Shown piece after piece: positions 42,830 to 64,000 of a stretch of 64,000 bases of DNA. Every line of letters begins with the position of its first letter. Position 1 is the stretch's first letter. Below the pieces are notes generated by a model. The model was given only the letters and a program-made list of their open reading frames with translations. It was not told the origin of the DNA and did not search any database. This DNA comes from Candidatus Parcubacteria bacterium (lineage in GTDB: Bacteria > Patescibacteriota > Minisyncoccia > UBA6257 > 2-01-FULL-56-20). Made by a program: the position numbers and the translations under genes. The stretch is taken from the NCBI GenBank assembly GCA_027450205.1, contig DAIDJL010000005.1, forward strand, positions 251 through 64,250, read 5' to 3'.

Positions 42830-42930
42830 TGCTATAGATTGTACTCTATAGAAAAATATCCTGCAAAAACCCCGCCCCCCTGGCCTAACCGGCCACCACT
42901 GGATTTATAACAATATTTCTGCTAGATTCT

Positions 42931-43278
42931 TTGAAGCATTTCCCGGAAAGGATCCCTGAGATCAGTATGCAAATACCATTGAACTATCTCTGCAGCCAGT
43001 GCAAGGCCATATGGTGCCGGCTTTGGTTCATAAATGCACCGATCCACTCCATCAACACCGCACTTTTCTGCGTAAACTGCGCCGAAAAGAATGAAAAAAG
43101 AAACCACGGCTTTTTTTGGAAAAGCGACCGCAGGAAAGGGAAAGGCGACACCATCGGGCAATACGTTCCCGCCCTTCCCACGGGAGACAGGTCCGGATAT
43201 TGGGATTTCCACAATGCCCCGCCCGAAGCGCACGCATGGTGGAAAAGCCTCCGGGAGAATCCCCGAAGTTCAAACTAA
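42931..43278 (+). CDS. small Cys-rich hypothetical protein (possible zinc ribbon)
   Basis: It has CSQCK...CVNCAEK Cys pairs and is followed by a strong intrinsic terminator. Confidence 0.3.
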   Translation: MKHFPERIPEISMQIPLNYLCSQCKAIWCRLWFINAPIHSINTALFCVNCAEKNEKRNHGFFWKSDRRKGKGDTIGQYVPALPTGDRSGYWDFHNAPPEAHAWWKSLRENPRSSN

Positions 43279-43294
43279 GCCGTTTCGCGCCATC

Positions 43295-43345
43295 CCCCGG
43301 ACGACAAAACCATTTCGTCCGGGGGATTTTTACTATAAATTTTTT
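43295..43345 (+). terminator. rho-independent terminator
   Basis: CCCCCGGACG-acaaaaccatttc-GTCCGGGGG is followed by ATTTTTACT. Confidence 0.55.
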
Positions 43346-43852
43346 CTGTCGATGAGCGGGTAAGGGGAGTCGGACCCCTGTCGTCTGATTGGCAACCAGA
43401 TGTAATACCGTTATACGATACCCGCTTTACGGATTCATTATATAGAGCTCCGCAAAAAAATCAATCTCACCGCGGCCTCTTTTGCTGCTGTTGTGCCCCT
43501 GAACGAAAGATACATCGAACTTCAGACGCACCCGTCGCGCAACTCATCTCGCGGCTCTGTGAGTACTTTACGCAGAACCCCGGCACACTCGACTTCTCGA
43601 TTATGGACTTGTGATCCGTAGTTTTGAAGACGCGTTTTCCCCTCGTGAGGGAGGGGCCCACGCCCGCAGCAATGCGAGCGTGGATCGGTGTGCATAAGTA
43701 GACCACCATGTCTTCCCCACGTGATTCAAGGTGCATGGCTGGGCAGCTGCTGACTCGTTCCTCGCTACAATAAACTGCTCAAAGTAACTCGCAATTCGAC
43801 AAACTCACACTACGTTAGTGACTTAGTCGCTTGTTTGTGGTACTGTGCGCGC

Positions 43853-44275
43853 ATGGGGAAGGTCGAATCAGGAGAGAACAAGCGGAAGCACCTTGAGTTT
43901 ATCCAAGGCGTGATCAACCGCATGGCGGGCAATTTGTTCTTTTTGAAGGGATGGGCGATCACTTTGATCGCGGGTCTTTTTGCCTTGGCCGCCAAGGACG
44001 CCAATACCAAATTCTTTGCCCTCGCCTTCGGGGTGGCGGTCGTGCTTTGGGCGCTCGATGGGTATTTCCTGAGGCAGGAGCGCCTGTTCAGGAGCCTCTA
44101 TGACCACGTGAGAAATCTTGACGAAATGGAGATCGATTTTTCGCAGGATACCCGTCCATTCAAGAGAGAACCAAAGAACAAATGGTATCGATGCGTCATC
44201 TCCGCATCACTACTTTTGTTTTACGTACCACTCCTTAGTCTCATGATCTTCGTGATGAGGTTCTTGAGCAGTTAA
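43853..44275 (+). CDS. small multi-pass membrane protein (candidate pore/effector of the adjacent TIR module)
   Basis: Has 2-3 predicted TM helices (AITLIAGLFALAA; FALAFGVAVVLWALDGYFL; VISASLLLFYVPLLSLMIFV). The start was moved from the TTG to ATG (MGKVESG). It lies 2 nt upstream of the first TIR-like gene. Confidence 0.45.
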   Translation: MGKVESGENKRKHLEFIQGVINRMAGNLFFLKGWAITLIAGLFALAAKDANTKFFALAFGVAVVLWALDGYFLRQERLFRSLYDHVRNLDEMEIDFSQDTRPFKREPKNKWYRCVISASLLLFYVPLLSLMIFVMRFLSS

Positions 44276-44277
44276 CG

Positions 44278-44970
44278 ATGCCCAGGTCAATCTTTGTCAG
44301 CTACAAATACGGTGATGCGGATGTGCAGGCTCTGAGGCCGTCGGGAGGCGGGCTCGTTTCCTTGGTCCCCACTACGGCACGCCATTACGTTGACGAACTC
44401 ACGCGATGGCTGGACGCGAATGACCATATCTATAAAGGCGAGAACGACGGAGAAAGCCTCGCTGGATTCAAAAACGAGACCATCGAGTCGAAGCTGCGGG
44501 ACAAGATTTTCGGTACGAGCATCACCATTGTCCTCATTTCGAAAAACATGAAAGACCCGTCGATGCTCGAAGAGGATCAATGGATTCCGTGGGAGATTTC
44601 GTACTCGCTGAAGGAAATGACAAAGAATAACAGGACGAGCAGGACGAACGGCATGCTGGCCGTCGTACTGCCAGATCGCAACGGGAGCTACGACTACTTC
44701 GTGAAAACGATTTGCCAAAATGGCTGCATGACCTGGTACACAAGTTCAACCTTTGGCATCATTTCGAAAAATATGTTCAACCGCAAAAGCCCTGATACGT
44801 TTTTCTGCACGAACCATCCCAACTCAGGCCGCGTCCACAGGGGCACCAATCATTCATACATCTATCCGGTGAAATGGGACGATTTCATCACAAATATGAA
44901 TTGGTACATCAATATCGCGGCCCAGATGAGCCAGAAAGTGAACGACTTCGAAATCACGAAGACGAATTGA
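44278..44970 (+). CDS. TIR-like domain protein (DUF1863-like)
   Basis: The N-terminal beta-strand SIFVSYKYGD is like TIR (hFhSYxxxD). The second strand is TIVLISKN. Confidence 0.45.
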   Translation: MPRSIFVSYKYGDADVQALRPSGGGLVSLVPTTARHYVDELTRWLDANDHIYKGENDGESLAGFKNETIESKLRDKIFGTSITIVLISKNMKDPSMLEEDQWIPWEISYSLKEMTKNNRTSRTNGMLAVVLPDRNGSYDYFVKTICQNGCMTWYTSSTFGIISKNMFNRKSPDTFFCTNHPNSGRVHRGTNHSYIYPVKWDDFITNMNWYINIAAQMSQKVNDFEITKTN

Positions 44971-44975
44971 TTGCC

Positions 44976-45467
44976 ATGGCGCGCAGAGTTTTCTTCAGTT
45001 TCCATTTCGAGAGGGACATCTGGCGGGCCAGCCAGGTGCGTAATAGTTGGGTTACCAAGCCAGACCGCGAGGAGGCAGGCTTTTGGGATGCCGCGGAATG
45101 GGAGAAGGTCAAGAAGGAAGGTGATGAGGCCATCAAGCGCTGGATCAATAAACAGCTCGATGGAACCTCGGTCACTGTCGTCCTTATTGGCGCGGAGGCC
45201 TCAAATCGCGAGTGGGTCAAATACGAGGTCAAGAGGAGTTATGAACGCGGCAATGGCATGCTTGGAATTTACATCCACAACATGAAGGACCAGAGCGGGA
45301 ATAAGGATAAGGCTGGTGACAGCCTTTTCGGCGAACTTGGCAAAGATAGGTCCGGCGATCCCGTCTATTTCTTCCAGCACTACCCGACTTACGACTGGAT
45401 CAACGATGACGGCTACAACAAGTTGGGAGAGTGGGTGGAAAAGGCTGCTAAGAAAGCCGGGAAATAG
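44976..45467 (+). CDS. ThsB-like TIR domain protein
   Basis: The start was moved to MARRVFFSFHFERDIWRASQVRNSWVTK. Downstream motifs are TSVTVVLIGAEASNREWVKYEV, GMLGIYIH and YDWINDDGYNKLGEWV. It resembles Thoeris ThsB from memory only, not verified. Confidence 0.55.
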   Translation: MARRVFFSFHFERDIWRASQVRNSWVTKPDREEAGFWDAAEWEKVKKEGDEAIKRWINKQLDGTSVTVVLIGAEASNREWVKYEVKRSYERGNGMLGIYIHNMKDQSGNKDKAGDSLFGELGKDRSGDPVYFFQHYPTYDWINDDGYNKLGEWVEKAAKKAGK

Positions 45468-45747
45468 TACACAGGGTGGTCTGAGTCGGATTCGGTCACG
45501 AAAACTCAGCGCAGCAGTTTTCATCTTTCGCGACCGCCCTCAACACCTCATCCAGAGCATACCCACAGAAGAAGCCTCAGATTAGCAGGAGTTCCCGAGG
45601 CCGCACTGATCCCCGCTGGGGAATACCGCACAGAATGCCTGGAAAACTTGCTGTTTAGCGCAGGTTCTCGCGTCTTGAGTGCATCCGTGTTCACGCTACC
45701 CTTAAAGCAAAGGTCGCAAAAGCAGAGGTCTTTGACAGCTCGCACAT

Positions 45748-46113
45748 ATGGAGTCCCAACCTGCGGCAAGCTACCTCCGGATGTACCGCAAAAAGTCCGG
45801 GCTCAGCCAGCGTGAATTGGCAGAGGTGCTCGGACTGATCACGGAATGGCGCATATCTGAGCATGAACGGTCGATCACGGTCCCGCGCCTCCTTACCGCG
45901 ATCAGTTACGAGGTCGTCTTCAATGCTCCGCTTGCTAAGTTGTTCCCCGGAATCTATGAGACCGTCCGAGGAAACATCGAGTCCCGATTGGCAGAACTTG
46001 AGTCCCGGCTGCAGGAGAGCGATGCCAAAGGGCGCGCCGCAATACCGATCGCTCGGAAGCTGGAATGGATTTGCGAACGAAAGAATCTTGCAGCCGACGA
46101 AGTCCCCGCGTAA
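45748..46113 (+). CDS. XRE-family helix-turn-helix transcriptional regulator
   Basis: The HTH is LRMYRKKSGLSQRELAEVLGLITEWRISEHER. Confidence 0.6.
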   Translation: MESQPAASYLRMYRKKSGLSQRELAEVLGLITEWRISEHERSITVPRLLTAISYEVVFNAPLAKLFPGIYETVRGNIESRLAELESRLQESDAKGRAAIPIARKLEWICERKNLAADEVPA

Positions 46114-46142
46114 CGCTCGGGATCAATAGCCGCATTTTGGCG

Positions 46143-46622
46143 ATGGAACTTCGCTTTCGCCGGTGTGGCTTCGCCGCGATGGAGGTACCGAGAGAGCTGC
46201 TCGATACCGGGGTGAGAACGTTTCGTTCTGCGGCCGAGATCGCCGGAGTGCTCGGGCCCCTCGTCAAGCTCTTCGCCCCTTCGGTGATCGTTATCAAGGT
46301 CGCCGCTCACCATGACAAGCGCTATCGCGATGGCATGGTTGCCAACGTCAGGCGTCTCCGTCAAGAGGCGTCCGCGCATTCCATTCCGGTTGATCGCATA
46401 TCTGCGGATTGGGTACGCAGCGCGCTTGGCGGGAGTGCGATGAACAAAGAACAGATCGCCCGAATGTTGATCCGGACCTTCCCCGCGCTTGGTTGGAAAT
46501 TGCCGCCCACGCGTGAGCGCAAGCCGTGGGTCAGCGAAGGATGGAATATGGCGATCTTCGACGCCGTCGCCATCGGGCTCGCATATCTTGAAAATGCACC
46601 GGTGGACGTGCCGGGATGTTGA
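46143..46622 (+). CDS. hypothetical protein
   Basis: A 160-aa ORF after the HTH gene with no recognisable motif. The start was chosen at the ATG after the HTH stop. Confidence 0.3.
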   Translation: MELRFRRCGFAAMEVPRELLDTGVRTFRSAAEIAGVLGPLVKLFAPSVIVIKVAAHHDKRYRDGMVANVRRLRQEASAHSIPVDRISADWVRSALGGSAMNKEQIARMLIRTFPALGWKLPPTRERKPWVSEGWNMAIFDAVAIGLAYLENAPVDVPGC

Positions 46623-46748
46623 ACCACGCCGGTAGATGGAACCCTTTCGCCGGTCCCTCCTCAGTTGGCCTAGGAAATTGCGATTCCGCCAAATGAAATA
46701 ACAATGAGGGACCGACGAAAGGGCTTGGACTGCGTTCTTAGCCGATGG

Positions 46749-47516
46749 CTACGGCATCGGCTCATCGTCCGACAAGCGAATGGCATCCAAGTTTTCGATC
46801 AGTATTTCGAACGCGAATTTGCCGAGGTACCATGCGCCTTGATTGAACTTGAATGCCGAGACTCCATACTCCTCGCATGCCCTTAAGATGTTCTCCCGGA
46901 CCATCTCTTCCGACAATTTCTCGTCGCCGATGATGCCGATCGAGAAGGCGACTCGACGGACCCAAACGTCGATTGGCTGGAGGAACCCGAGGTCGTCCTG
47001 TCGCAGCGCATCTTCGAGGTCGTAGAGGTCAACCAGGTCTCGCAAGTAGAACGAGGCAATCTTCGGGCCGATCTGCGTGATACCCATCAGGGCGTCATAG
47101 AGGTTTCGGACGTTGCCGCGCCTGATCTCTGCAATGCTGTACCGCGTCAGATTTTCGTCAGGTAGTCCTTTGACGAACTGCAGGATTCCGACGATCATCT
47201 GTACATCTCTCGCCTTCCCAATCTTGCCCTTGCCGATGACCGTGGAAAGGTCGGAAGAAACGGCATTGAGATCACACCTCGCGAGCGTTGCGAAATCGGT
47301 GTTTTTGAAATGCGCATCAAGCACCGGCATTGCCGCCTTTTCCACTTCCTCAGACACTTCATCCCGTCTTCCCTGGTAAAAGGAGTGCGAGAGAAGGAGC
47401 GAAAGGCCGCCGTACCAATTGGCCTCGAGGCTGGCAGTGGGAAAGTCGCGCGCAAGGATTACCGTCTTGTAACGGTCCCCGAAGCGCACTATCTGATTCA
47501 TCAATCGCCCATTCAT
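46749..47516 (-). CDS. HhH-GPD superfamily DNA glycosylase-like protein
   Basis: The HhH is LMGITQIGPKIASFYLRDL. It is followed by LQPIDVWVRRVAFSIGI, matching the FPVDTHVxRVxxRLG catalytic-Asp region of Nth/AlkA-type glycosylases. There is no C-terminal Fe-S Cys cluster. The track TTG start was moved to ATG. Confidence 0.5.
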   Translation of the reverse strand: MNGRLMNQIVRFGDRYKTVILARDFPTASLEANWYGGLSLLLSHSFYQGRRDEVSEEVEKAAMPVLDAHFKNTDFATLARCDLNAVSSDLSTVIGKGKIGKARDVQMIVGILQFVKGLPDENLTRYSIAEIRRGNVRNLYDALMGITQIGPKIASFYLRDLVDLYDLEDALRQDDLGFLQPIDVWVRRVAFSIGIIGDEKLSEEMVRENILRACEEYGVSAFKFNQGAWYLGKFAFEILIENLDAIRLSDDEPMP

Positions 47517-47588
47517 AACCGATTGCGCCCGTCCTCCAACTTCTCCGTTGACCTCCAATTCTATGCGGACCGATCTGGTGGTCGAGGT

Positions 47589-50500
47589 TCAGTGCTCCGC
47601 AATCCACGCCCGTGTGAGGGGGCCGAAGTAGCCGGTGGCAGGGATGCCATGGGAGGCCTGAAACTTCTCCAAGGCGAGCTTCGTGTCCATGCCGAAGTAT
47701 TCCGTCTCGTAGCCTAGGGAACCGGCATATGTGGGGACGGAGACTACTGGGAAGCCGTTGGTGTTGAGGTAGTGCTGGAGGCTACGCACCTCAGGGTCCC
47801 GCATGCCGAGGAAGAGGTTTTTCGTGAAGCTCGGGGTCCCTCCACAGAGGGAGGATGCTGATGCGGAGATCGCGATTCCTTTGGTCTCCGCCTCCGTTAC
47901 AAGGGAACAGAGGGCATTGACCAGCATGGTGAGGGTGAGGAGCGGAGAGGAGGAGGACGAGACGATCGTGGAGGAGCTCACGATAAGAAGGGCGCCGTTT
48001 CCTGAAGAGGAAGAGGATGCCGTGGAGGAGGAGGGCGCGGGGGCGAAGTAGGAGCCACCACCACCCGATGAATAGACGATGCCTCCTCCAGTTCCTCCAC
48101 CACTAGTCGCTTTGGAGCTCTTCGAAATCACATAAATATGGACCGCCGAGTCGCTAAAGGTGTCCGTGAAGACGCCGTTCGTCACAGGCACCGAGCGGCT
48201 TTCGTTGTATACTACGGCGTCGCCGGTCGGATTGGCACCGTTGATCGTAATCGTCGTCGAGAGCGGCGTACTGCTCTCGTTAACGTCGGTGAGGCGCGCA
48301 GCGAACACATAGATGTTGTTCGCATCCTCACGCACCATGACATCCACACGGTTGTCAGCGCTATCTCCGGTGCGATTCGTTGACACCGAAAGGGTCGTGC
48401 TGCTCAGGATGACGCTCGAGAAATGCTCCGTGTCCGTCACGAACTGAGAGAGGACGCTATAATCCTGCGGAGTCTCATCGGTCCATCCTGCAGGGCCCCA
48501 CCAAGAGACGCCCTTCATACCGTGGATGACCGCAAGCCATGCCTCCATGTTTACCTGCGCCGCGGTTGGACCATATCCGGAGCACGGTTGCGAACTATCG
48601 CAAAGACCAGCTTCGATGAATGCAATCCGCGGTACCAGATTGTAGGTGTAAGCCGCGATCGCGTCCCAATTGGTCACTTCGTCAGCGACCGTCCATCCGC
48701 TCGTTTGGTAAATAAATGGATAAATATCCGAGGCATACACATCAGTGAACATCGGGGTGCTGTTTGGAACGATTGAAAAATACCAACCGTTCTGGCGATC
48801 GGCTATGGGATAATAGCCCGCCAAGTTTGTGACAACTGGATGGTTGGGGTCATTCTCGTTCGTTGCCTGCGTAAGGGCAAGCATCCTACTTGGCAACACA
48901 TGCCCTGGCGTGGGACCAATATCTGGTTCATCCATCCATGTCCACATGAACAAATTCGGATTGCTGCGATCATTATTCACATAGCTGATGGTGGTAGTTA
49001 CGGCATTTGGATCGTTCGCGGCATATGTTGAGGAGGTTTGTCCGGTCCAATTCCCATCTGGACCGATAAATGGCGCTCCTACTGTGTCCATGCAGGTATT
49101 GAATTCGGTGTAGTTATACGCATAATTATTCTCCCAACAATCGCTCCATCCATAAGCGTTCACCGATGAGCTCGCAAGCCATTGATTAACCCATGCAGCG
49201 CTCCCATCGATAAAAGGAGTGACGGGGAAATAAGGCTGTCCGTTGAGGTAGATGTCATTGTTAGCGTCAATGTAGACGCCACTCGGCAGACCGTTTGTGT
49301 ACTTTGTGATTGTCCCATTGTAGACGGCTTTCTGCGTGCCGTTCGCGTTCTCCAGTTGGACCTCGAAGGAATGATTGCCCGCGGCAAGCGAACTTACGTC
49401 GACCGAGAGCCGCTCATGGTTCGTCATCGAACCGTTTTGCGTATAGACCCTGGTGCCGTCAATGCTTGCAGTGAGAATATCGGTGGGCGACTCCCCCCAC
49501 ATCGTCACGTCAATGGGGATGGCGCTTCGGTCTGCTGCATCGGGATAGCGGACGGTGATATTGGCGGTGGGTGTAGCAATCGGCGCATTTGAAAGGTCGA
49601 AGTCGTCGAAATATGCCGATCCGGTTTGCGTCCCGTCAGCATCATCGAATCCAAGGTAGACCCGCGTAAAGGGGCCAGCGATAGTTTGACCCGCTAGATA
49701 GATATCCTGCGCTCCATCGAGGATCACCGATTCGATCCCATCCCCACTCCCCGCAACCGTATGCACCTCAACAGAATGCCACGCCCCTTTCGAGACGGCA
49801 ATCGCCCCCCTATTGCCATTGCTGTCCTGAAGATAAAACGAGCCTCCACTGCAGGCCAACCATAATTGCGTGGTTCCCTCATAGATCACGACCGGATTCG
49901 TTTCGGTGTATGCAGGATCAATATAGAAGTAGAAGCGGGCATAAAGGGCCGTGGAGGTGGGTATGTTTTCGAGAAGTTTTACAGAGCCGCCACTGACAGG
50001 CAGGGTTGCTCTGAATGAATACTGGCCCGAATGGACAGTCGAAGTGGATATCGCATACTCGCCATTCAAATAGACGGCATCCGAAGTAGTGGCCGATCCC
50101 GTGCCTGACCAAGCACTGAAGTCGCCCGTTTCAAAATCATCAAAGAAAAGAATGCTGGAACTCGGCGTGGTTACCTGGATACTAGTGGAAGTGACCGATG
50201 CCAGTCCCGAGGTATCGAATGCCTGGACAGAATATGTATAGGTCGTACTTGCGGTGACGCTCGTGTCGATAAAAGTTGGAATCGACGAAGAGGCAATGCT
50301 CGAGGTAGGCGTACAGGAACCTATACATCGAAAGATAGTGTATCCCCCGAGGCCGGGACCCGAAGGATCGGTAGAGGTCGCCCATGAAAGATTGACGGTG
50401 CCCGCGTCCATTGCTGCGCCCACAACGCTCGTGGGGGTGGTAGGCGGTATGCTGTCGATCGTAACCGTCTGGGTCGAGGTTGCGCTACCACCGGGGTTTG

Positions 50501-51395
50501 TGGCGGTGAGAGTGTAGATGGTGGTACTTGTGGGGTTTACCGTGATGGAACCGGAAAGGGTGGTCGTAGATAGCGCGAATCCACCAACGTTCGCGGCGAT
50601 CCCCACGGAGGATGCGTTATTGACAGACCAGGAAAGTGTCGATGAGCCACCCGAGAGGATGAATGCTGACGAAACCGAGAAGGAAGCGATAGAGGGGACC
50701 GCGACGCTATCCGTCGCTTCAAAGGTAGCGATGCCATTGTACGCGACAGACGGCGATGACGTTGCATAAGCGGTGGCACTATAACCTCCGGCGAGACTTG
50801 CTACCTTGTATTCGAGAAGACCTGCGTTTGTAGCCGGGCCTGGCATGGCAACGAGGGTAGACCAGGTGCCAGTCGGCGCGAAGACATCATATCCATCATT
50901 AAAATGTCCGATCAGTAGCTCATCGGTGGCGGAAGTGAATACTGTCGGCGTGGAGGTTGGCGATGTTGAGGTCGCCACTTTGTCGAGTGGAATACTTGAT
51001 ATCCCAGAAAATGATGCAAAGAGACAACCTCCGGACCCGTTCGAGTTCGCTCTCGTGCATGTTATTGAATCCGGTCCAGTAGACGTAGCGATTGCATAAA
51101 ATACTTCCTGTTGCCCTCCTGAGGTTGTCGAAGAATACGGCTCCGCGACCTGGAATACACTCCCTAGACTGCTTGACGCGCCGTAAAAGGTCTGTCCCGC
51201 GCCACTTTCTATCCACACGTACATGAGATTGCCGGCGGTAGAAGTCACGTTCATCGTGCAGCTTGTGCTTCCAATGCTGCATGTTGAAGTTGCGACGAGC
51301 GAAATCGTTGCTTTCACTTGCCCGGCCATCCCGAAAAACACGTACAATAAACAACCTGTTACGAGCGCATTTATTAGGAGTCGCCGCAATGTCAT
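47589..51395 (-). CDS. giant secreted cell-surface protein with an Ig-like repeat, an FN3 domain, a putative glycoside-hydrolase-like central region and a C-terminal peptidoglycan-binding domain
   Basis: The signal is MTLRRLLINALVTGCLLYVFFGMAG. The Ig-like repeat is STLSWSVNNASSVGIAANVGGFALSTTTLSGSITVNPTSTTIYTLTATN. The FN3 is PPTTPTSVVGAAMDAGTVNLSWATSTDPSGPGLGGYTIFRCIG...TTYTYSVQAFD. The C-terminus (RSLQHYLNTNGFPVV...LALEKFQASHGIPATGYFGPLT) is PG_binding_1-like. It is paralogous to 1..2990. Confidence 0.7.
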   Translation of the reverse strand: MTLRRLLINALVTGCLLYVFFGMAGQVKATISLVATSTCSIGSTSCTMNVTSTAGNLMYVWIESGAGQTFYGASSSLGSVFQVAEPYSSTTSGGQQEVFYAIATSTGPDSITCTRANSNGSGGCLFASFSGISSIPLDKVATSTSPTSTPTVFTSATDELLIGHFNDGYDVFAPTGTWSTLVAMPGPATNAGLLEYKVASLAGGYSATAYATSSPSVAYNGIATFEATDSVAVPSIASFSVSSAFILSGGSSTLSWSVNNASSVGIAANVGGFALSTTTLSGSITVNPTSTTIYTLTATNPGGSATSTQTVTIDSIPPTTPTSVVGAAMDAGTVNLSWATSTDPSGPGLGGYTIFRCIGSCTPTSSIASSSIPTFIDTSVTASTTYTYSVQAFDTSGLASVTSTSIQVTTPSSSILFFDDFETGDFSAWSGTGSATTSDAVYLNGEYAISTSTVHSGQYSFRATLPVSGGSVKLLENIPTSTALYARFYFYIDPAYTETNPVVIYEGTTQLWLACSGGSFYLQDSNGNRGAIAVSKGAWHSVEVHTVAGSGDGIESVILDGAQDIYLAGQTIAGPFTRVYLGFDDADGTQTGSAYFDDFDLSNAPIATPTANITVRYPDAADRSAIPIDVTMWGESPTDILTASIDGTRVYTQNGSMTNHERLSVDVSSLAAGNHSFEVQLENANGTQKAVYNGTITKYTNGLPSGVYIDANNDIYLNGQPYFPVTPFIDGSAAWVNQWLASSSVNAYGWSDCWENNYAYNYTEFNTCMDTVGAPFIGPDGNWTGQTSSTYAANDPNAVTTTISYVNNDRSNPNLFMWTWMDEPDIGPTPGHVLPSRMLALTQATNENDPNHPVVTNLAGYYPIADRQNGWYFSIVPNSTPMFTDVYASDIYPFIYQTSGWTVADEVTNWDAIAAYTYNLVPRIAFIEAGLCDSSQPCSGYGPTAAQVNMEAWLAVIHGMKGVSWWGPAGWTDETPQDYSVLSQFVTDTEHFSSVILSSTTLSVSTNRTGDSADNRVDVMVREDANNIYVFAARLTDVNESSTPLSTTITINGANPTGDAVVYNESRSVPVTNGVFTDTFSDSAVHIYVISKSSKATSGGGTGGGIVYSSGGGGSYFAPAPSSSTASSSSSGNGALLIVSSSTIVSSSSSPLLTLTMLVNALCSLVTEAETKGIAISASASSLCGGTPSFTKNLFLGMRDPEVRSLQHYLNTNGFPVVSVPTYAGSLGYETEYFGMDTKLALEKFQASHGIPATGYFGPLTRAWIAEH

Positions 51396-51474
51396 TGAGG
51401 TGTGGAATAAATAATAGATATAATGGCGGAGGGTTCGAGTTACTCTGTTTTAATTATACTAAATAATATGAAAC

Positions 51475-52980
51475 CTAACGAGCACAGCGAAAGCCAATAT
51501 AATAATCAGGGCCGGAAGCTCCCCAGTTGACACTCAGCATAAAGAGTCCGCTCGTCCACCCACTGTTATAGTCGTTGCCGCGATCAAAATCCCATGTGCC
51601 CTGATTGCCACCGTTGAGATACGTCAGAAGCGCTCCCATTCCTTGTCCAGAATTCCAGCTATTCGGAGGCGCTACTTCGTTTTGGGGGACATCCGATGTC
51701 CAGTTCGATACATTGGTGAATTCGCACCAGCTCCAGGTCGCACCTCCCCCTGAACAGGAAGGCACGTTCATGGTATTCGTGGCGTCACCTTGATCCATCG
51801 TGCTTCGTTGTACGTGCTCATCCACATTTCCCGCCAAATCCCAAATGACCGAGCCATCGGAAAGTACGAGTGTGCGGCGCTGATTTTGAGCAGCAGAACC
51901 GCCGGTTCCTGTACCACCGCCTGAAGTCGGACCGTCGGTGCCTGTATATCCATCAGCATCATTCGGGCCCGCCGGAGAAACTGCATTGGGGATACCGTCG
52001 TTATGGCCGGAATACACATACCCGGAGCCGACCGATCCGCCCGACCAGTTCGCCGCCTGCCCAACTGCATTCATGGCGATCGTCATATACTCATCGTTCG
52101 TGAGAAGATGCGCACCGATGGAATCGCAGTATTGCTTTGCGGTAGGTTCGCTCACAAATCCAATGGGCCATCCACCGGGCAGTGATGAAATTTGACGACC
52201 GTTGGCAGTGCTGCATGCATAAGATGCATCGTCATACGTGTCATATCCGGAATTGTAGTCATTCAAATAATTCCCTTTACCGTCAGAACACACTGCGTCG
52301 TATTTCATCACCCAGAATGCGGGCGTCCCATACGTCGGGTTGCCGGGAACCAAGACCCAGTTCCGCCCACCCGCAATAGTCTGGCTGCTCCCGCTCCGGA
52401 ACAGATTGGGATTTGCCCCGGTGGCTGCGATCTGTTTCTGTGATTCAGGCACCGCGATCAGTTTAAAGTTCGTTCCGTCGGTCAGATACTCGTAATACAG
52501 ATTGGTCGAGGTCTGATTTGAGGGATCGACGGGCAGCGATCCCAGCGGAGACCCGCTTGATATGTTTTTGAAATCCACCGGGATCCATCCCGTGCCGTCT
52601 ACGTTCCGATACGTTGAGCTCGCCGCGCAATGGAAATATCCTCCCGAAGGGAAGCCCAGCCCCGAACAATCCGTGCCAGCGGAGCTGGTAGCGGTGGGAT
52701 CGGGGATGGAGATATATGCAACATTAGGGGTACCCAGAGAGTAAGAACTATTTCCGCTCTGGTCAGCCATATATGTCTGAATTGCATTGGTCAGAGTATT
52801 AAGGTCAGATAAGCGATTGACATCCCGTGATTGCTTCAGAAGCTCGGCGGGATTGAGGACGAGAACGACGACCACGGCAAGGATGGCGAGGATGGCGATG
52901 ACGACGAGAAGCTCGATGAGGGTGAAGGCCCTCTCGCTATTCCTCCGCTCCGCATGGTATGAAGAGGATGGTGCGGCCAT
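51475..52980 (-). CDS. type IV pilin-like protein with a C-terminal FGE-sulfatase (C-type lectin fold) domain
   Basis: The prepilin N-terminus is ERAFTLIELLVVIAILAILAVVVVLV. The first ~150 aa are paralogous to 3079..4359. The C-terminus GNDYNSGWTSGLFMLSVNWGASGPDYYIGFRCAR carries the FGE-sulfatase signature (GGSW...YIGFRCA). Confidence 0.7.
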   Translation of the reverse strand: MAAPSSSYHAERRNSERAFTLIELLVVIAILAILAVVVVLVLNPAELLKQSRDVNRLSDLNTLTNAIQTYMADQSGNSSYSLGTPNVAYISIPDPTATSSAGTDCSGLGFPSGGYFHCAASSTYRNVDGTGWIPVDFKNISSGSPLGSLPVDPSNQTSTNLYYEYLTDGTNFKLIAVPESQKQIAATGANPNLFRSGSSQTIAGGRNWVLVPGNPTYGTPAFWVMKYDAVCSDGKGNYLNDYNSGYDTYDDASYACSTANGRQISSLPGGWPIGFVSEPTAKQYCDSIGAHLLTNDEYMTIAMNAVGQAANWSGGSVGSGYVYSGHNDGIPNAVSPAGPNDADGYTGTDGPTSGGGTGTGGSAAQNQRRTLVLSDGSVIWDLAGNVDEHVQRSTMDQGDATNTMNVPSCSGGGATWSWCEFTNVSNWTSDVPQNEVAPPNSWNSGQGMGALLTYLNGGNQGTWDFDRGNDYNSGWTSGLFMLSVNWGASGPDYYIGFRCAR

Positions 52981-58818: not shown

Positions 58819-59184
58819 ATGAGCATTTACGAACAAATCGGAGCGAAAATAAGAGAACTTCGGGTGCATCACCTCGGAAAGGGAATCAGCCAGGAAACCC
58901 TTGCCGAAGCGATGAACACTACCCCCAACACGATTTCCCGATGGGAAACCGCCACATATAAACCATCCATTGAGGATTTGGAGAAATTGGCACGGTATTT
59001 CGGAACCACCATCGGGGTATTCTTTCCAAACATCGATCCGGGGGCACGCGTTCAGGCACTCCTCAGTGCTACAGGCGACCTCGACGATGATGACCTTGAC
59101 GAGCTTACCCGTTACGCACAGTTTCGTCGGGCCAGGAAGGAGTTGGATCAGGCGAAGAAACGAGGGAAGCGAAAAGCGCTATGA
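58819..59184 (+). CDS. XRE-family HTH regulator (CapH-like)
   Basis: The HTH is LGKGISQETLAEAMNTTPNTISRWET. The start was moved to ATG (MSIYEQIGAK). It is divergent from the Ubl operon and overlaps the downstream peptidase gene by 4 bp. Confidence 0.6.
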   Translation: MSIYEQIGAKIRELRVHHLGKGISQETLAEAMNTTPNTISRWETATYKPSIEDLEKLARYFGTTIGVFFPNIDPGARVQALLSATGDLDDDDLDELTRYAQFRRARKELDQAKKRGKRKAL

Positions 59185-59819
59185 TGGCGAATCCAAACTA
59201 CGCATCACTAAAGGAGCTTGCGCGAGCGAAGAGGGCGCAATACGGTGTGACTACCGAGGCTCTCAACCTGATCGTAGTGAGGAAGATTTACTCAGACGAA
59301 GGGATTCGCATCGACAATTGGGAGTTCCCGCGAACCATCCGCGCTGCCTACATGAGCGATGACGCGGACCCTTCGGTCGCGATCAACAAGACACTGCCGA
59401 GAGAACCGCGTCTCTTCTCACTAGTGCATGAGCTGAAGCACCACTACGTTGACCGGCCGAAGATCGAGCAGGGGCAAATCAAGTGCGGCGACTACAACGA
59501 GAACCAGACAATTGAAATTGGAGCTGAGGTGTTCGCCGCCGAATTTATCTATCCGGAAACCGAGTTTCTGGAACGGCTGCAACTCCTGAATATCGAACCG
59601 GGACAATGCTCGCCCGAGGATGTTGTACGCCTCAAGCGCGAATGCAGGGCCTGCGTCAGCTATCAGTTTCTAAGGAAACGGCTCGTGCGGCTGGGATTCG
59701 CCATGCCTCACGCCTTCGATAAAATCCAGTTTCAAAAACTCGAAGAACAACTGTATGGGCCGCCGATCTACAAGCAGAAATGGTTCCAGCGGCGGCGTGG
59801 TCGTGCCCAGGCAAAATAG
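59181..59819 (+). CDS. ImmA/IrrE-family zinc metallopeptidase (CapP-like, DUF955)
   Basis: The HEXXH motif is VHELKHHYVD, with a downstream Glu/Cys-rich region. Confidence 0.65.
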   Translation: MMANPNYASLKELARAKRAQYGVTTEALNLIVVRKIYSDEGIRIDNWEFPRTIRAAYMSDDADPSVAINKTLPREPRLFSLVHELKHHYVDRPKIEQGQIKCGDYNENQTIEIGAEVFAAEFIYPETEFLERLQLLNIEPGQCSPEDVVRLKRECRACVSYQFLRKRLVRLGFAMPHAFDKIQFQKLEEQLYGPPIYKQKWFQRRRGRAQAK

Positions 59820-59957
59820 CTGGACCAATGTCATTTGCCAAATGCATGTGGATGAGTTTTATTTCACTCGCCGGGGCAGAGGATGTCGTTCCTTCACACT
59901 CAGCAACCTCAACGCTGGCGCTTTGGGCTTGATGCTCTCTGACCCTACAGAGTAGTG

Positions 59958-61334
59958 TTACCTGTCACGTCTTCTTGGCCCTTTTCTACTTGCTCCTTTG
60001 CGCTCTGGTTCATCAAGTTTCAGACTCTGAATGCGCTGGAGTAGCTGCGCGGCGGATTCGTAGGACCGGCCTTCGCGCGCAGCAAGATCGGCTTCGGTGG
60101 GCACCAACTCGCCACGGAAGGCCTTGGCGAGAATAGATTGTGGAAGACGATCTATTTGCTGTTGGGTCGCTTTGTAGTGTGCCTCGATCTTGTCTGCGAG
60201 TGCGAATAATACGTTAACACGCCGCACGATCTCCTCTTGCTCTTCGATCAAGGGAAGATTGGCTTCATACTCTTCAAGAAGATCTTTGCGCACCCCATCC
60301 TGCCCAACGGTTCGCTCAGATGAGCTGATTACATAATTGCGTAGCGGCGGATCTTGCAGCAGAATAAAGAGAAAATCGTTATTCAATTCATTAGATGAGA
60401 TCGGCACCGCTTTCATGAGAGCGACGTTGTATGCACCTTCAATTCCCCGCAGAATCTGAAACAGTGGTGGACCATATCGCCCTATCATCACATCAGTCTT
60501 CCTGCAAAGGCGTCGCGCCATATCTTTTGGTATATAGGTCAGGTTGTTATCCGATTTGTAGTCGCGAATTTGAATGAAACGGATATAACCCTCCTGCGCC
60601 TTATAGGCAAAATGCTTCTTCGGTGGTTGACTGCCGCCGATAATCTCACATATGGAACCTATTGTCTTAGTGCCCCAACTTGCAAAATCGATCTCATGCT
60701 CCTCCCGCCAGTCGGCGGTGAGGCGGCCGGAGCAGGCTGCTGCGAGAACGGATTGACGGAAGCGCTTGAGCAGCACTGGAATCTTCGCCATGCGCTCCTT
60801 GCACTGCTCAACTTCCGCGAGGAGCTTCTCCAGCCTTTCCGCGATTCTCCACTGCTCGGCGGAAGGCGGCACCGGGATACATAGTGTTTTTATAAACTCA
60901 GTCGGAACACGAAGCTGCCCCGCCGTACCTGTGAAATTCTCCTTTGCCTGACGACGAACACTGCTCTGTGACAGATATCGATAAACATAAAGCGGGCTAA
61001 TGCCCGACAATGGCCGGGCAACATGCACTTCAGTCGTGCCGCATCCAAGGCCATTCCGTAGATTTCGTGCAACCGCGCCCTTGCCGTTTTCCATACAGGG
61101 AGTGATCTTTGCGAAGAGGACATCGCCGTCTGCAAAATGGGTAAACCCTTTTCGAACATCACCCAAAGGACGCTCTTCTCGAAAAAGAAAATCGGGGGAA
61201 TCTTCGCTGATTGCGGCCATAGGAGCAAACGTAACCATTGTTTTGTCGTCAATGGTTTTGTCATGACGGGGGTTGATTGCTGAAACATCGACGAGTGCAG
61301 CAATATCCCAGCCCTCGGGAAGTTCGTCTGTCAT
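59958..61334 (-). CDS. hsdS: type I restriction-modification specificity subunit
   Basis: There are two target-recognition domains with conserved central/C-terminal helical repeats (LPLIEEQEEIVRRVNVLFALADKIEA). The size is 458 aa. There is a 4-bp overlap with hsdM. Confidence 0.75.
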   Translation of the reverse strand: MTDELPEGWDIAALVDVSAINPRHDKTIDDKTMVTFAPMAAISEDSPDFLFREERPLGDVRKGFTHFADGDVLFAKITPCMENGKGAVARNLRNGLGCGTTEVHVARPLSGISPLYVYRYLSQSSVRRQAKENFTGTAGQLRVPTEFIKTLCIPVPPSAEQWRIAERLEKLLAEVEQCKERMAKIPVLLKRFRQSVLAAACSGRLTADWREEHEIDFASWGTKTIGSICEIIGGSQPPKKHFAYKAQEGYIRFIQIRDYKSDNNLTYIPKDMARRLCRKTDVMIGRYGPPLFQILRGIEGAYNVALMKAVPISSNELNNDFLFILLQDPPLRNYVISSSERTVGQDGVRKDLLEEYEANLPLIEEQEEIVRRVNVLFALADKIEAHYKATQQQIDRLPQSILAKAFRGELVPTEADLAAREGRSYESAAQLLQRIQSLKLDEPERKGASRKGPRRRDR

Positions 61335-62746
61335 GCTTCCACGCCTTCCTCTTTTTCCACGAGGGCGACAATCTCGCGCAGGCTATCCACAATGGCTTCG
61401 AGTTCCGTGATCGCTTCGGCGGCAAGCTCCTGCGGTTCCGGCAGGTCGTCGGAATCTTCGAGGGATTCATCTTTCAGCCAGGTCACGTCAAGCTTGTAGC
61501 CGCGTTCCTTGATGGCCACGAGCGGGAAACTGCGGAAGCGTCCGGTCTCTCCCCCATCCGTTCGCTTACTCTGCCCGTTCGGGTCCTTGCCGTAGGCCTT
61601 TTCGAACTCGGCGAAGTGCTCGCGGGTGAGCGGGCGGTCTTTCTTGGTGATGCCGGGCACGTTGGAGCGGGCGTCGAAAATCCAGACCCTTTCCGTCGGC
61701 AGGCCTTTCTGGAAGAAGATGACGTTTGCCTTGACGCCCTGGCTATAGGGAGTGAATGTTCCGCGCGGAAGGCGCAGCACGGTATGCAGATTGCAGTCCT
61801 GCATGAGGATTTCAAAGACTTCGCCCGCCTTGTCCTCAAAGAGGCAGTTGTCTGGCAACACAATGGCGGCACGGCCGCCCGGCTTGAGCGTATTTACGAC
61901 GTGCTGCACGAAGTTGAGCTGCTTGTTGCTGGTTTCGATGGTGAAGTCTTCGCGCTCGGGTGCCTGGTTAGCCCCCTTGGTGCCAAACGGCGGATTGGTG
62001 AGTACGACATCGTAGCGCTCGCCACGGTCCGGCTCATAGAGCGTGTCGCCGAGATAAATACGCGGCTGGACGCCATGCAGGTAGAGATTCATGAGCGCAA
62101 GGCGGCGCGGGCGGGCGACGAGGTCCTGTCCGTAATACGTCTGCGTGCGGATGCGCTTTGCGTCGGCGCGGTCAAAGACCCCCTTGCTCTCGGCCACGAG
62201 CCATTCGTAGGCGCTCACGAGGAATCCGCCAGTGCCGCACGCCGGATCGGCGATGGTGAAATCCTTGCGTCCGCGCGGATCGGGCTTCATCACGCGACAG
62301 ATGGTCTGGATGAGCACGCGCGGCGTAAAGTATTGGCCCGCGCCCTTCTTGCCTTCGCTTGCGGCCTTCTCAAGCAGTCCTTCAAAGGCGGCGCCTTTCA
62401 CGTCCACGTCGAGAGAGGACCATTCCTCTTCATCGATCATGTCGATCAGGCGGCGGAGATTGACGGGATTGTTGAAACGCGAGGTGGCCTGGGTAAAGAT
62501 GTCGCCGAGCAGCCCTTCGGCGGAGCGCAGCTTGCGCAGCACGTCGTTGTAATGATCGGTGAGGTCGGTGCCGGAGAGTTTCTTCAGAGTGTCCCAGTCA
62601 CATCCTTTGGGTATCTCCACCCCCTTTTCTTCGGCCATCTTCAAAAAGAGCAAATAGGTAAGCTGCTCGATGTAGTCGCCGTAGTCCACGCCGTCGTGGC
62701 GCAGCGTGTGGCAGAAGCCCCAGAGTTTTTGAACGATATCACTCAT
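61331..62746 (-). CDS. hsdM: type I R-M N6-adenine DNA methyltransferase subunit
   Basis: Motif IV is VLTNPPFGTKG and motif I is DPACGTGGFL. The N-terminal HsdM_N helix bundle is present. Confidence 0.85.
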   Translation of the reverse strand: MSDIVQKLWGFCHTLRHDGVDYGDYIEQLTYLLFLKMAEEKGVEIPKGCDWDTLKKLSGTDLTDHYNDVLRKLRSAEGLLGDIFTQATSRFNNPVNLRRLIDMIDEEEWSSLDVDVKGAAFEGLLEKAASEGKKGAGQYFTPRVLIQTICRVMKPDPRGRKDFTIADPACGTGGFLVSAYEWLVAESKGVFDRADAKRIRTQTYYGQDLVARPRRLALMNLYLHGVQPRIYLGDTLYEPDRGERYDVVLTNPPFGTKGANQAPEREDFTIETSNKQLNFVQHVVNTLKPGGRAAIVLPDNCLFEDKAGEVFEILMQDCNLHTVLRLPRGTFTPYSQGVKANVIFFQKGLPTERVWIFDARSNVPGITKKDRPLTREHFAEFEKAYGKDPNGQSKRTDGGETGRFRSFPLVAIKERGYKLDVTWLKDESLEDSDDLPEPQELAAEAITELEAIVDSLREIVALVEKEEGVEA

Positions 62747-64000
62747 GCAGCGATGGCCTCATTGATTTTTTGTACGAGCGCGGGAAGGCGACCCTCGAAG
62801 ACCTTGGCGGCTTTCCCCCATCCGCCAAAATCGCTCAAAACCGGCTGACTGTCGAAGTCATCCTGATCGATGGAGAGATTCTCCTGCAGGTGCGTCCGGA
62901 TGCGGTCGAGCCAGACGAGTTGATCGGCGGTGAAGGCGTTGCCATTTTGGATGGCGTGCATGGCCCGGTCCGCGCGTTCTGAGGCGTTGAGGAGCGGGTT
63001 TTGGGTATCGGCGGCGTTCTTCACCATGGAGATGATGTCGGCAAGTGCCTTGTGGCGGCGCAGTTCAAAGGCTTTTTGGAGATTGGGCACGGTGAACCGC
63101 TGCGGCGTGGCGGCCAGCGTGTCGCGCAAGGACTTGAGCGCGTCGGGGTTCCAATTCTGCGGATGCTTGAGCAGGATCGCAATGGCGTCGATGTCCGACT
63201 GATGGTCGGCGACGTAGGCGGCAAAGGCGGCGAGATAGTTATCGGGCTTATATTCTTTGCCGTCCAGTCCGCGCACGAGCCATTCGGACGAGACCTCATC
63301 CTGCGCCGTATGGGCGACGAAAAAGACGCGGGGTTTGCGCTTGTAATCCTGGAGCAGGCGCTGGAAGTCAGGATTGCGCAGCAGGCCCATCGTGGGAGTG
63401 AAGTTCTTCTGGAGGGCCGCAGCGAGAGTTTTTGCGAGTGCGGCGAGATCGCCTTCAGGCACGAAGGCGGCAAAATCCGCGCGGGCATCGCCGTGCATTT
63501 CCTTATCAATGCGCTGGAGACGCTTGGTGAGGCAGCGAATGTTGTATTCCCGGTCCCGATTGGCCCAGATGTCCTCGACGATCTCAGGGATAGTGCGCGT
63601 GACTCCGGCGGGCGGATCGGCGGTCATGGCCGTCGATTGGCGGAAGTATTCGAGCAGGGTTCCGTCGAAGCAATCGAAGACGACGAAATGCGATTTGTCG
63701 GGATACTTTTCGCCTTTGCGCGTGCCACGCCCCAACATCTGCTCGAAGAGGATGCGGGACTTTACGGGGCGCAAAAAGACAATGAATTCGAGATCGGGGA
63801 TGTCCACGCCGGTGGTGAGCATATCCACGGAGACCACAATCCCGGGATTGGGGCGGTTGCGGAACTCTCGGATGCGCTGAAGCGGGCGGTCCACGGTTGG
63901 GCTGCCGGTGATCTTCTGGACGAAGGAGTCTCCCCTGCCGAAGACATCCCGCGCCTGGTCCACGAGTTGGTCCGCATGGGAGGTGTGCGGAAGGTCGTTC
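62743..64000 (-). CDS. hsdR: type I restriction enzyme R subunit (C-terminal part; 5' end beyond window)
   Basis: Helicase motif VI is VDMLTTGVDIPDLEFIVFLRPVKSRILFEQMLGRGTR. The frame is open to the window end (the track start GTG is not real). There is a 4-bp overlap with hsdM. Confidence 0.75.
   Translation of the reverse strand, partial: NDLPHTSHADQLVDQARDVFGRGDSFVQKITGSPTVDRPLQRIREFRNRPNPGIVVSVDMLTTGVDIPDLEFIVFLRPVKSRILFEQMLGRGTRKGEKYPDKSHFVVFDCFDGTLLEYFRQSTAMTADPPAGVTRTIPEIVEDIWANRDREYNIRCLTKRLQRIDKEMHGDARADFAAFVPEGDLAALAKTLAAALQKNFTPTMGLLRNPDFQRLLQDYKRKPRVFFVAHTAQDEVSSEWLVRGLDGKEYKPDNYLAAFAAYVADHQSDIDAIAILLKHPQNWNPDALKSLRDTLAATPQRFTVPNLQKAFELRRHKALADIISMVKNAADTQNPLLNASERADRAMHAIQNGNAFTADQLVWLDRIRTHLQENLSIDQDDFDSQPVLSDFGGWGKAAKVFEGRLPALVQKINEAIAA

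Follow-up and report, generated by a model that had tools for sequence, protein, structure and literature searches.

Results

Three tightly packed genes for a small membrane protein and two TIR proteins

The DNA analysed here, referred to as the window, is a 64,000-nucleotide stretch of contig DAIDJL010000005.1 from a Candidatus Parcubacteria genome, and the subject of this report is a putative Thoeris anti-phage locus formed by three open reading frames (ORF1, ORF2 and ORF3) that lie close together on its + strand (Table 1). An earlier reading made from the letters of the sequence only (the sequence-only reading) had described this locus as Thoeris-like, with two tandem ThsB-like TIR proteins preceded by a tiny transmembrane (TM) protein in place of a ThsA effector. 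The coordinates of the three genes and the spacers of 2 nt (ORF1-ORF2) and 5 nt (ORF2-ORF3) were reproduced, and all peptide strings quoted in that reading (MARRVFFSFHFERD, VRNSWVTK, TSVTVVLIG, REWVKYEV, YDWINDDGYNK and SIFVSYKYGD) were found.

Table 1. Features of the locus and its upstream side, in coordinates of the window.
Feature	Coordinates	Strand	Description
thsF (ORF1)	43853..44275	+	Type V Thoeris effector with three TM helices, 140 aa; PADLOC PDC-M50A; alternative TTG start at 43835
thsB-1 (ORF2)	44278..44970	+	'TIR1'-type TIR protein, 230 aa; E106 as putative catalytic Glu; PADLOC, Pfam and PDB matches
thsB-2 (ORF3)	44976..45467	+	TIR protein of the same type as ThsB of B. cereus MSX-D12, 163 aa; E84 as catalytic Glu; PADLOC PDC-M50B
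Conserved three-gene cassette	43816..45468	+	blastn homology common to unrelated contigs
Unique intergenic sequence	43469..43815	.	Separates the cassette from the point where host synteny ends; no feature detected
tRNA-Gly(GCC)	43354..43425	-	Rfam RF00005, 58.1 bits, E=4.5e-11; ARAGORN; host gene, outside the defence system

ORF1 is homologous to the ThsF effector of type V Thoeris

A recent preprint expanded Thoeris to types I-XI and further candidates (Yirmiya et al., bioRxiv 10.64898/2025.12.03.692087, Dec 2025), and described type V as a TIR protein together with a three-TM effector that was annotated as DUF2270 and renamed ThsF. Type V systems from B. thuringiensis DAR 81934 and Bacillus sp. 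1NLA3E were validated in that work. The validated ThsB sequence given in its Table S1 was recovered with 100% identity (P0271), and the gene immediately 3′ of this B. thuringiensis ThsB (L090:3773-4198), which bears the consecutive IMG id as in Table S2 and adjoins Gabija-like genes, encodes a protein of 141 aa. ORF1 is 51% identical to this protein (E=3e-48, aa 8-135), and both match the PADLOC model PDC-M50A, ORF1 at 2.2e-47 and over the full length (3-130 of 134) and the B. thuringiensis protein at 1.8e-48. Because of this homology to the gene beside a validated ThsB, and the match of both to the same model, ORF1 is identified as ThsF. Moreover, ORF3 matches PDC-M50B over the full length (4.4e-63, 1-158 of 162), so that genes of the locus are found by both models and the locus belongs to PADLOC PDC-M50. 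As the validated ThsF and ORF1 share PDC-M50A, this unnamed PADLOC candidate is type V Thoeris, listed there under a different designation; our literature search found no paper naming PDC-M50.

The association was also seen on plasmids, where tblastn searches with ORF1 and with the validated ThsB hit adjacent positions in the same records. Specifically, Terribacillus pT1 and a Klebsiella conjugative plasmid each carry a type V-like TIR gene followed by the gene of a 136-aa ORF1 homologue (44% and 39% identity, respectively). In PHROGs, ORF1 and ORF2 match the phage families phrog_19896 (4e-36) and phrog_13658 (7e-35), both of unknown function, and type V components are thus also carried by phages or prophages.

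The ORF1 product is indeed a membrane protein of 140 aa with no soluble domain, as the sequence-only reading had it. Hydropathy segments at aa 27-47, 54-73 and 112-140, and helices at aa 8-49, 53-88 and 118-139 in an AlphaFold2 model built with 37 homologues (pLDDT 84.8), agree on three membrane-spanning helices, and no Pfam domain or other domain was found above threshold. The basic stretch after TM2 (aa 74-111, or 73-117 when drawn more widely) contains ten K/R residues, and the conserved residues of ThsF are K10, R23, R77, R80 and Y83, the basic ones being kept between the ORF1 clade and the Bacillus protein. The protein would lie with its N terminus inside the cell, placing these five residues on the cytoplasmic side. 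Comparison of the ORF1 model with the PDB by Foldseek yielded nothing at E<=0.001 except generic helical hairpins at weaker scores, its sequence profile found no match in the PDB, and NCBIfam holds no model for either ORF1 or ORF2.

Compared with type V Thoeris as described, ORF1 is thus close in length (140 versus 141 aa), helix number and conserved motifs, and the TIR genes are adjacent in the same operon, with both TIR families and two-TIR loci represented in Table S1. However, the B. thuringiensis system has one TIR gene followed by thsF, whereas here the effector gene comes first and two TIR genes follow; its TIR also belongs to another ThsB family (PADLOC PDLC00430, 252 aa), and the present copy is known from sequence, in a Patescibacteria-like host. 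Relative to PDC-M50 in PADLOC-DB v2, a bioinformatic candidate only, in which ORF1 corresponds to A and ORF3 to B, the locus has an extra ThsB gene of the PDLC00428 type (ORF2) between the two. Among the options that had been raised for ORF1, a minimal TM effector was therefore the right one, but the supposed novelty falls away, since both ThsF and PDC-M50 had already been described.

Both downstream genes encode ThsB-type TIR proteins

The ORF2 and ORF3 products both exceed the Pfam cut-off for PF08937 (ThsB_TIR) and match PADLOC ThsB models end to end, in agreement with the two tandem ThsB-like proteins perceived earlier. For ORF2, the PF08937 match is at 1.1e-6 (29.3 bits; the cut-off is 21.2) and the PADLOC match, to PDLC00428, at 1.1e-79 over the full length. 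In the PDB, ORF2 matches entry 9VYL at 4.7e-63; the depositors named this entry 'putative cyclic ADP-D-ribose synthase TIR1', and, to judge by this name, it may be B. dafuensis TIR1. ORF2 keeps the WIPWEISYS motif, in which E106 aligns with 9VYL.

ORF3 gives stronger matches to PF08937 (4e-26) and aligns end to end with PADLOC PDLC00431 (1.9e-70). In the PDB it matches 6LHY/9B7D, the ThsB of B. cereus MSX-D12 (2.5e-38), and its E84 aligns with E85 of that protein, where an E85Q substitution removes both defence and the production of signal (Ofir et al., bioRxiv 10.1101/2021.01.06.425286). ORF3 is also 49% identical to TIR 2228150917, which is labelled as type V in Table S1 of Yirmiya et al., and the ORF2-like and ORF3-like families are both catalogued there as 'DUF2270 - Type V'. 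The same list includes TIR pairs that are two gene ids apart, which implies a TIR-ThsF-TIR order.

More than one divergent thsB gene per locus is a known trait of Thoeris. Two divergent tandem TIR genes that feed one effector are likewise found in the type I Thoeris of Bacillus dafuensis FJAT-25496, where the two TIR proteins have additive phage ranges and produce the same ThsA-activating molecule (Ofir et al.). The effector of that system, however, is a soluble SIR2-SLOG NADase (ThsA), whereas here it is a 140-aa membrane protein.

The genes are intact and no ThsA was found

Each of the three genes matches its family over the whole length, and comparison with a 92%-identical cassette on another contig (L092) yielded ratios of nonsynonymous to synonymous substitution (dN/dS) of 0.10 for ORF1, 0.095 for ORF2 and 0.073 for ORF3. 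All three are thus under purifying selection. Because the genes are full length, the dN/dS values low and the catalytic Glu kept in both TIR proteins, the locus is not degraded, contrary to one of the earlier suggestions.

Searches for a conventional Thoeris effector remained negative. No SIR2 or SLOG match, as expected for a type I ThsA, was found among the neighbouring genes with Pfam and PADLOC, nor anywhere in the window by tblastn with two queries, a SIR2 protein from a B. cereus Thoeris locus and one SLOG domain, which gave noise only (E>=0.7). Pfam and PADLOC likewise revealed no Macro protein near the locus. For ORF1 itself and its 36 homologues, no Macro or SLATT family was matched in Pfam at E<=1, and in PADLOC at E<=0.1 ORF1 matched the PDC-M50A models only. 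Type II (TM and Macro, ThsC) and type VII (SLATT, ThsH) resemble the present locus in that a TIR-made signal switches on an effector that spans the membrane and is thought to breach it, but ORF1 differs from both in having no Macro domain, SLATT match or separate ligand-binding domain. The argument that 140 aa is too small for a SLOG or Macro domain was correct; sensing is proposed to take place at oligomer interfaces instead. The absence of ThsA is hence to be expected, because ThsF is the effector.

The operon is an accessory cassette that excludes the upstream stretch

The cassette is 92% identical in nucleotide sequence to L092 over 43816..45468 and 73% identical to the metagenome contigs L001/L002 over 43834..45467. 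In both comparisons the homology stops at the ORF3 stop codon, and on the 5′ side its boundary lies 19-37 bp upstream of ORF1, indicating that the stretch further upstream does not travel with the cassette. The three contexts in which the cassette occurs are unrelated, with differing flanks that hold genes of the conjugative-element type (D12 methyltransferase, DUF87/TrwB, relaxase).

Judged by its ThyX homologues, the host belongs to Patescibacteria/Parcubacteria. Sister genomes, in which ThyX is 91% identical, share the gene order Tmk-ThyX-Dcd-tRNA-Gly with the window. The tRNA-Gly gene and its promoter-like TTGATT-16-TATAAT site (43464..43437, - strand) are 96-98% conserved in the sister genomes L093-L095, and the homology ends just past this site, at 43464/43468. 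The sister genomes lack the cassette at the tRNA-Gly site and have a beta-lactamase-like gene there instead. No gene from their side of the junction reappears in the window, so the right-hand end of the variable region was not found. As synteny with L093-L096 ends at the tRNA-Gly promoter and is not resumed within the window, the strain-variable region spans at least 20 kb, and this break together with the unrelated contexts identifies the cassette as accessory.

The stretch at 43340..43850 had been taken for non-coding, compositionally odd DNA that could be a decayed ThsA or a non-coding RNA region. It contains the tRNA-Gly gene and its promoter-like site, and its GC content of 0.52 falls within the 0.48-0.55 of the flanks. 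The ten small ORFs of 42922..43736 have no PADLOC match at E<=1, and the four that were compared with Pfam gave nothing above the curated cut-off. Searching 43469..43852 for a non-coding RNA or riboswitch, Rfam at E<=1 reported tRNA only, and the fold z-score was -1.46. Neither a decayed ThsA nor a non-coding RNA region is thus supported here. The unique intergenic part shows no homology to the sister genomes or to other cassette-bearing contigs, and presumably carries the operon promoter.

Regarding how the cassette might move, integron, att or terminal-repeat mobility was considered and rejected, as only short, chance-level repeats were present. A tRNA-linked island was rejected as well: the cassette is located 5′ of the tRNA, whose 3′ end was not found repeated.

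ThsF genes almost always adjoin TIR genes

A profile of the ThsF family matched 5161 cluster representatives (clustering at 50% identity; E<=1e-3) and 242 loci among ~185,600 species genomes. These loci span Patescibacteria, Pseudomonadota, Planctomycetota, Nitrospirota, Actinomycetota, Cyanobacteriota and DPANN archaea. Architecture and linkage were counted in the best 80 genome loci of this search (L007-L086), a list that is biased to relatives of the query and gives no estimate of prevalence. In 77 of these 80 loci an ORF2-like or ORF3-like TIR gene lies next to thsF on the same strand: thsF is followed by one TIR gene in 62 loci, preceded by a TIR gene in seven and accompanied by two TIR genes in eight. 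No TIR gene was detected in the remaining three, one of which is truncated where its contig ends. The exact ThsF-TIR-TIR order, with an ORF2-like and an ORF3-like protein, recurs in the metagenome contigs L001/L002 and L092. Such regular adjacency, along with the lack of any SIR2 or SLOG match in the window with the two queries used, speaks against the earlier proposal that the sensor is encoded elsewhere.

Patescibacteria lineages (Saccharibacteria, Paceibacterota, Daviesbacteria, Woesebacteria, Absconditabacterales and others) supply ~31 of the best 80 loci, and two come from DPANN-type archaea. In cultured-genome data, type V was reported to be enriched in Bacteroidota (Yirmiya et al.).

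The family further includes a 378-aa fusion protein (P0140, L097:4001-5137) in which a SLOG cluster-2 domain (PF18163, 1.7e-15, aa 10-198) precedes a complete ThsF module (aa 244-376, PDC-M50A 1.2e-48). Its operon (L097:2689-5137), seen on 8 contigs, also holds a TIR_2 gene and a 152-aa gene, and adjoins patatin and nSTAND genes. The 152-aa gene, located between the TIR and SLOG-ThsF genes, was compared with ThsF and is unrelated. It follows from this fusion that a dedicated SLOG sensor, too, can drive the membrane module of ThsF, and such fusions may be the untested 'SLOG and TM' candidates of Yirmiya et al.

A proposed type V Thoeris mechanism and its alternatives

We read the locus as a complete and functional type V Thoeris anti-phage operon of the order thsF-thsB-thsB, carried as a 1.65-kb accessory cassette in a Patescibacteria-like genome, and put the probability of this reading at roughly 0.88. 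In the mechanism that we propose, each of the two divergent ThsB proteins would sense a different phage cue, by extension from the two-TIR system of B. dafuensis. Once activated, both would use their catalytic Glu residues to convert NAD+ into a cyclic ADP-ribose isomer, most likely 3'cADPR, as in B. thuringiensis type V and in the B. cereus ThsB that ORF3 resembles, and would thereby feed one ThsF. As ThsF has no separate sensor domain, the conserved residues held by its cytoplasmic N-terminal amphipathic helix and by the basic stretch after TM2 might form ligand pockets between protomers. Yirmiya et al. model ThsF as a homo-oligomeric ring (an AlphaFold3 heptamer) with positively charged inter-protomer pockets, and the conserved basic and polar residues of ORF1 are compatible with this model. 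Ligand binding would then open or disrupt the membrane, by which the infected cell would be stopped (abortive infection). The analysis itself shows the homology, architecture, intactness, conservation and mobility of the locus. For the present locus we infer the identity of the signal, the oligomeric state of ThsF and the membrane-disruption step, and of the mechanism as a whole the signal is the main uncertainty.

There are points for and against this reading. The type V system of B. thuringiensis was reported to protect against phages, its TIR protein to make 3'cADPR and the Tad1 sponge to lower its defence, while 3'cADPR was toxic only to cells carrying the system; however, 3'cADPR production and 3'cADPR-triggered toxicity were reported for this system only, the validated 1NLA3E variant was not made toxic by 3'cADPR, and the pore or membrane-disruption step is a model ('presumably') even there (Yirmiya et al.). 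The type of TIR protein alone does not fix the signal either, because ORF2-type and ORF3-type TIRs pair with other effectors too. Furthermore, ORF1 falls below the gathering threshold of Pfam PF10028 (DUF2270) in hmmscan (12.9 bits, E=0.086, versus 25 bits), and the validated B. thuringiensis ThsF has no PF10028 match at E<=1, giving instead a weak full-length match to 8xMP (PF24838, E=0.012).

Since ORF1 and the validated ThsF both miss the PF10028 threshold, the DUF2270 label was not reproducible with the Pfam copy used, and a different version of Pfam or a method of higher sensitivity must lie behind it; it is also for this reason that the membership of ORF1 was assigned by its homology to ThsF. 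Among the 37 ORF1 homologues, 13 match PF10028 weakly (best E=0.0096). ThsF may in fact be closer to 8xMP than to DUF2270, and a literature search on '8xMP' returned irrelevant papers only. Two larger relatives were encountered: a 351-aa protein (P0191) in which an 8xMP 'octameric membrane protein' domain (PF24838, 1.6e-27) is joined to the ThsF module, and a 362-aa protein (P0132) with an unassigned 220-aa N-terminal region ahead of that module.

The same architecture might work with a different signal, in that this ThsF clade answers a product other than 3'cADPR, needs a second infection cue, or receives two molecules from the two TIR proteins. We regard this as possible, if unlikely. The unresponsiveness of the 1NLA3E variant indicates that the signal may differ between type V clades, TIR proteins of other Thoeris types make 2'cADPR or canonical cADPR (Yirmiya et al.), and ORF1 shares no more than 51% identity with the characterised ThsF. 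However, ORF3 is close to the ThsB of B. cereus MSX-D12, the reference for production of the ThsA-activating isomer, ORF2 has its match in an entry whose depositors named it a cyclic ADP-D-ribose synthase, the two B. dafuensis TIR proteins converge on one molecule, and the basic residues of ThsF are kept from the ORF1 clade to Bacillus. A broader version of this idea, namely that the ThsF clade dominant in Patescibacteria and other uncultivated lineages answers a non-3'cADPR TIR product or integrates two signals, seems rather improbable to us.

It is very unlikely that the TIR proteins are themselves NAD+-depleting effectors that act without a second messenger, with the membrane protein as an anchor, sensor or regulator. 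Some bacterial TIR proteins do act as NADase effectors, CBASS, Pycsar and SPARTA being among the contexts named (Yirmiya et al.), and the killing activity of ThsF is putative. However, both TIR proteins of the locus fall in ThsB/DUF1863 families whose characterised members are signal synthases, and the ThsF module also occurs fused to the SLOG ligand-sensor domain. Moreover, the restriction of 3'cADPR toxicity to carriers and the effect of Tad1 place the effector downstream of a diffusible signal.

A degraded or orphan type I or II Thoeris that has left a ThsA remnant in the upstream 500 bp, next to a TM gene that is an unrelated passenger, would fit the lack of a SIR2, SLOG or Macro protein nearby and the ~430 bp of apparently empty upstream sequence, but is scarcely credible given the intact genes under purifying selection, the TM-TIR pairing across many phyla, and an upstream stretch that lies outside the cassette and holds a conserved host tRNA and no PADLOC match.

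Other genes in the window

Just 3′ of the cassette lies an XRE-type helix-turn-helix gene (45748..46113; HTH_3, 1.1e-8), which overlaps an ORF of 185 aa (46065..46622). This is followed on the - strand by an ORF of 269 aa (46749..47558). The GC content of the region rises to 0.60. The 185-aa and 269-aa ORFs have no match in Pfam, PADLOC, NCBIfam or PHROGs, and the region 45748..47558 could be another accessory, toxin-antitoxin or defence module.

The adjacent region 47589..52980 includes the gene of a 1268-aa Ser/Thr-rich protein whose sole domain is a C-terminal PG_binding_1 (1.3e-10), adjoined by that of a protein of 501 aa bearing a pilin-type methylation motif at its N terminus. Both probably belong to the surface of the Patescibacteria host or are associated with its pili. 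Further downstream, a gene for an IrrE/M78-like peptidase (59181..59819) precedes one for a type I restriction-modification specificity subunit (59958..61334; Methylase_S, 7e-19), ~15 kb beyond the cassette, after which come two large ORFs on the - strand. The whole of 59181..63963 is probably a type I restriction-modification system within the same variable region as the cassette.

Implications

The locus matters mainly as a correction, in that the recently defined ThsF accounts for its look of a Thoeris system that lacks ThsA; the effector class of ORF1 is not new, type V Thoeris having already been described by Yirmiya et al. The survey adds modest context on ThsF and opens no long-standing question, and a different or dual ThsF signal, if true, would extend the signalling chemistry of type V without amounting to a new kind of system. 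ThsF emerges as a large family that is almost always encoded beside a TIR gene, is common in Patescibacteria and travels in a cassette of very small size. In cells that are ultra-small and episymbiotic, such a membrane-breaching abortive system might also affect the interface between host and symbiont.

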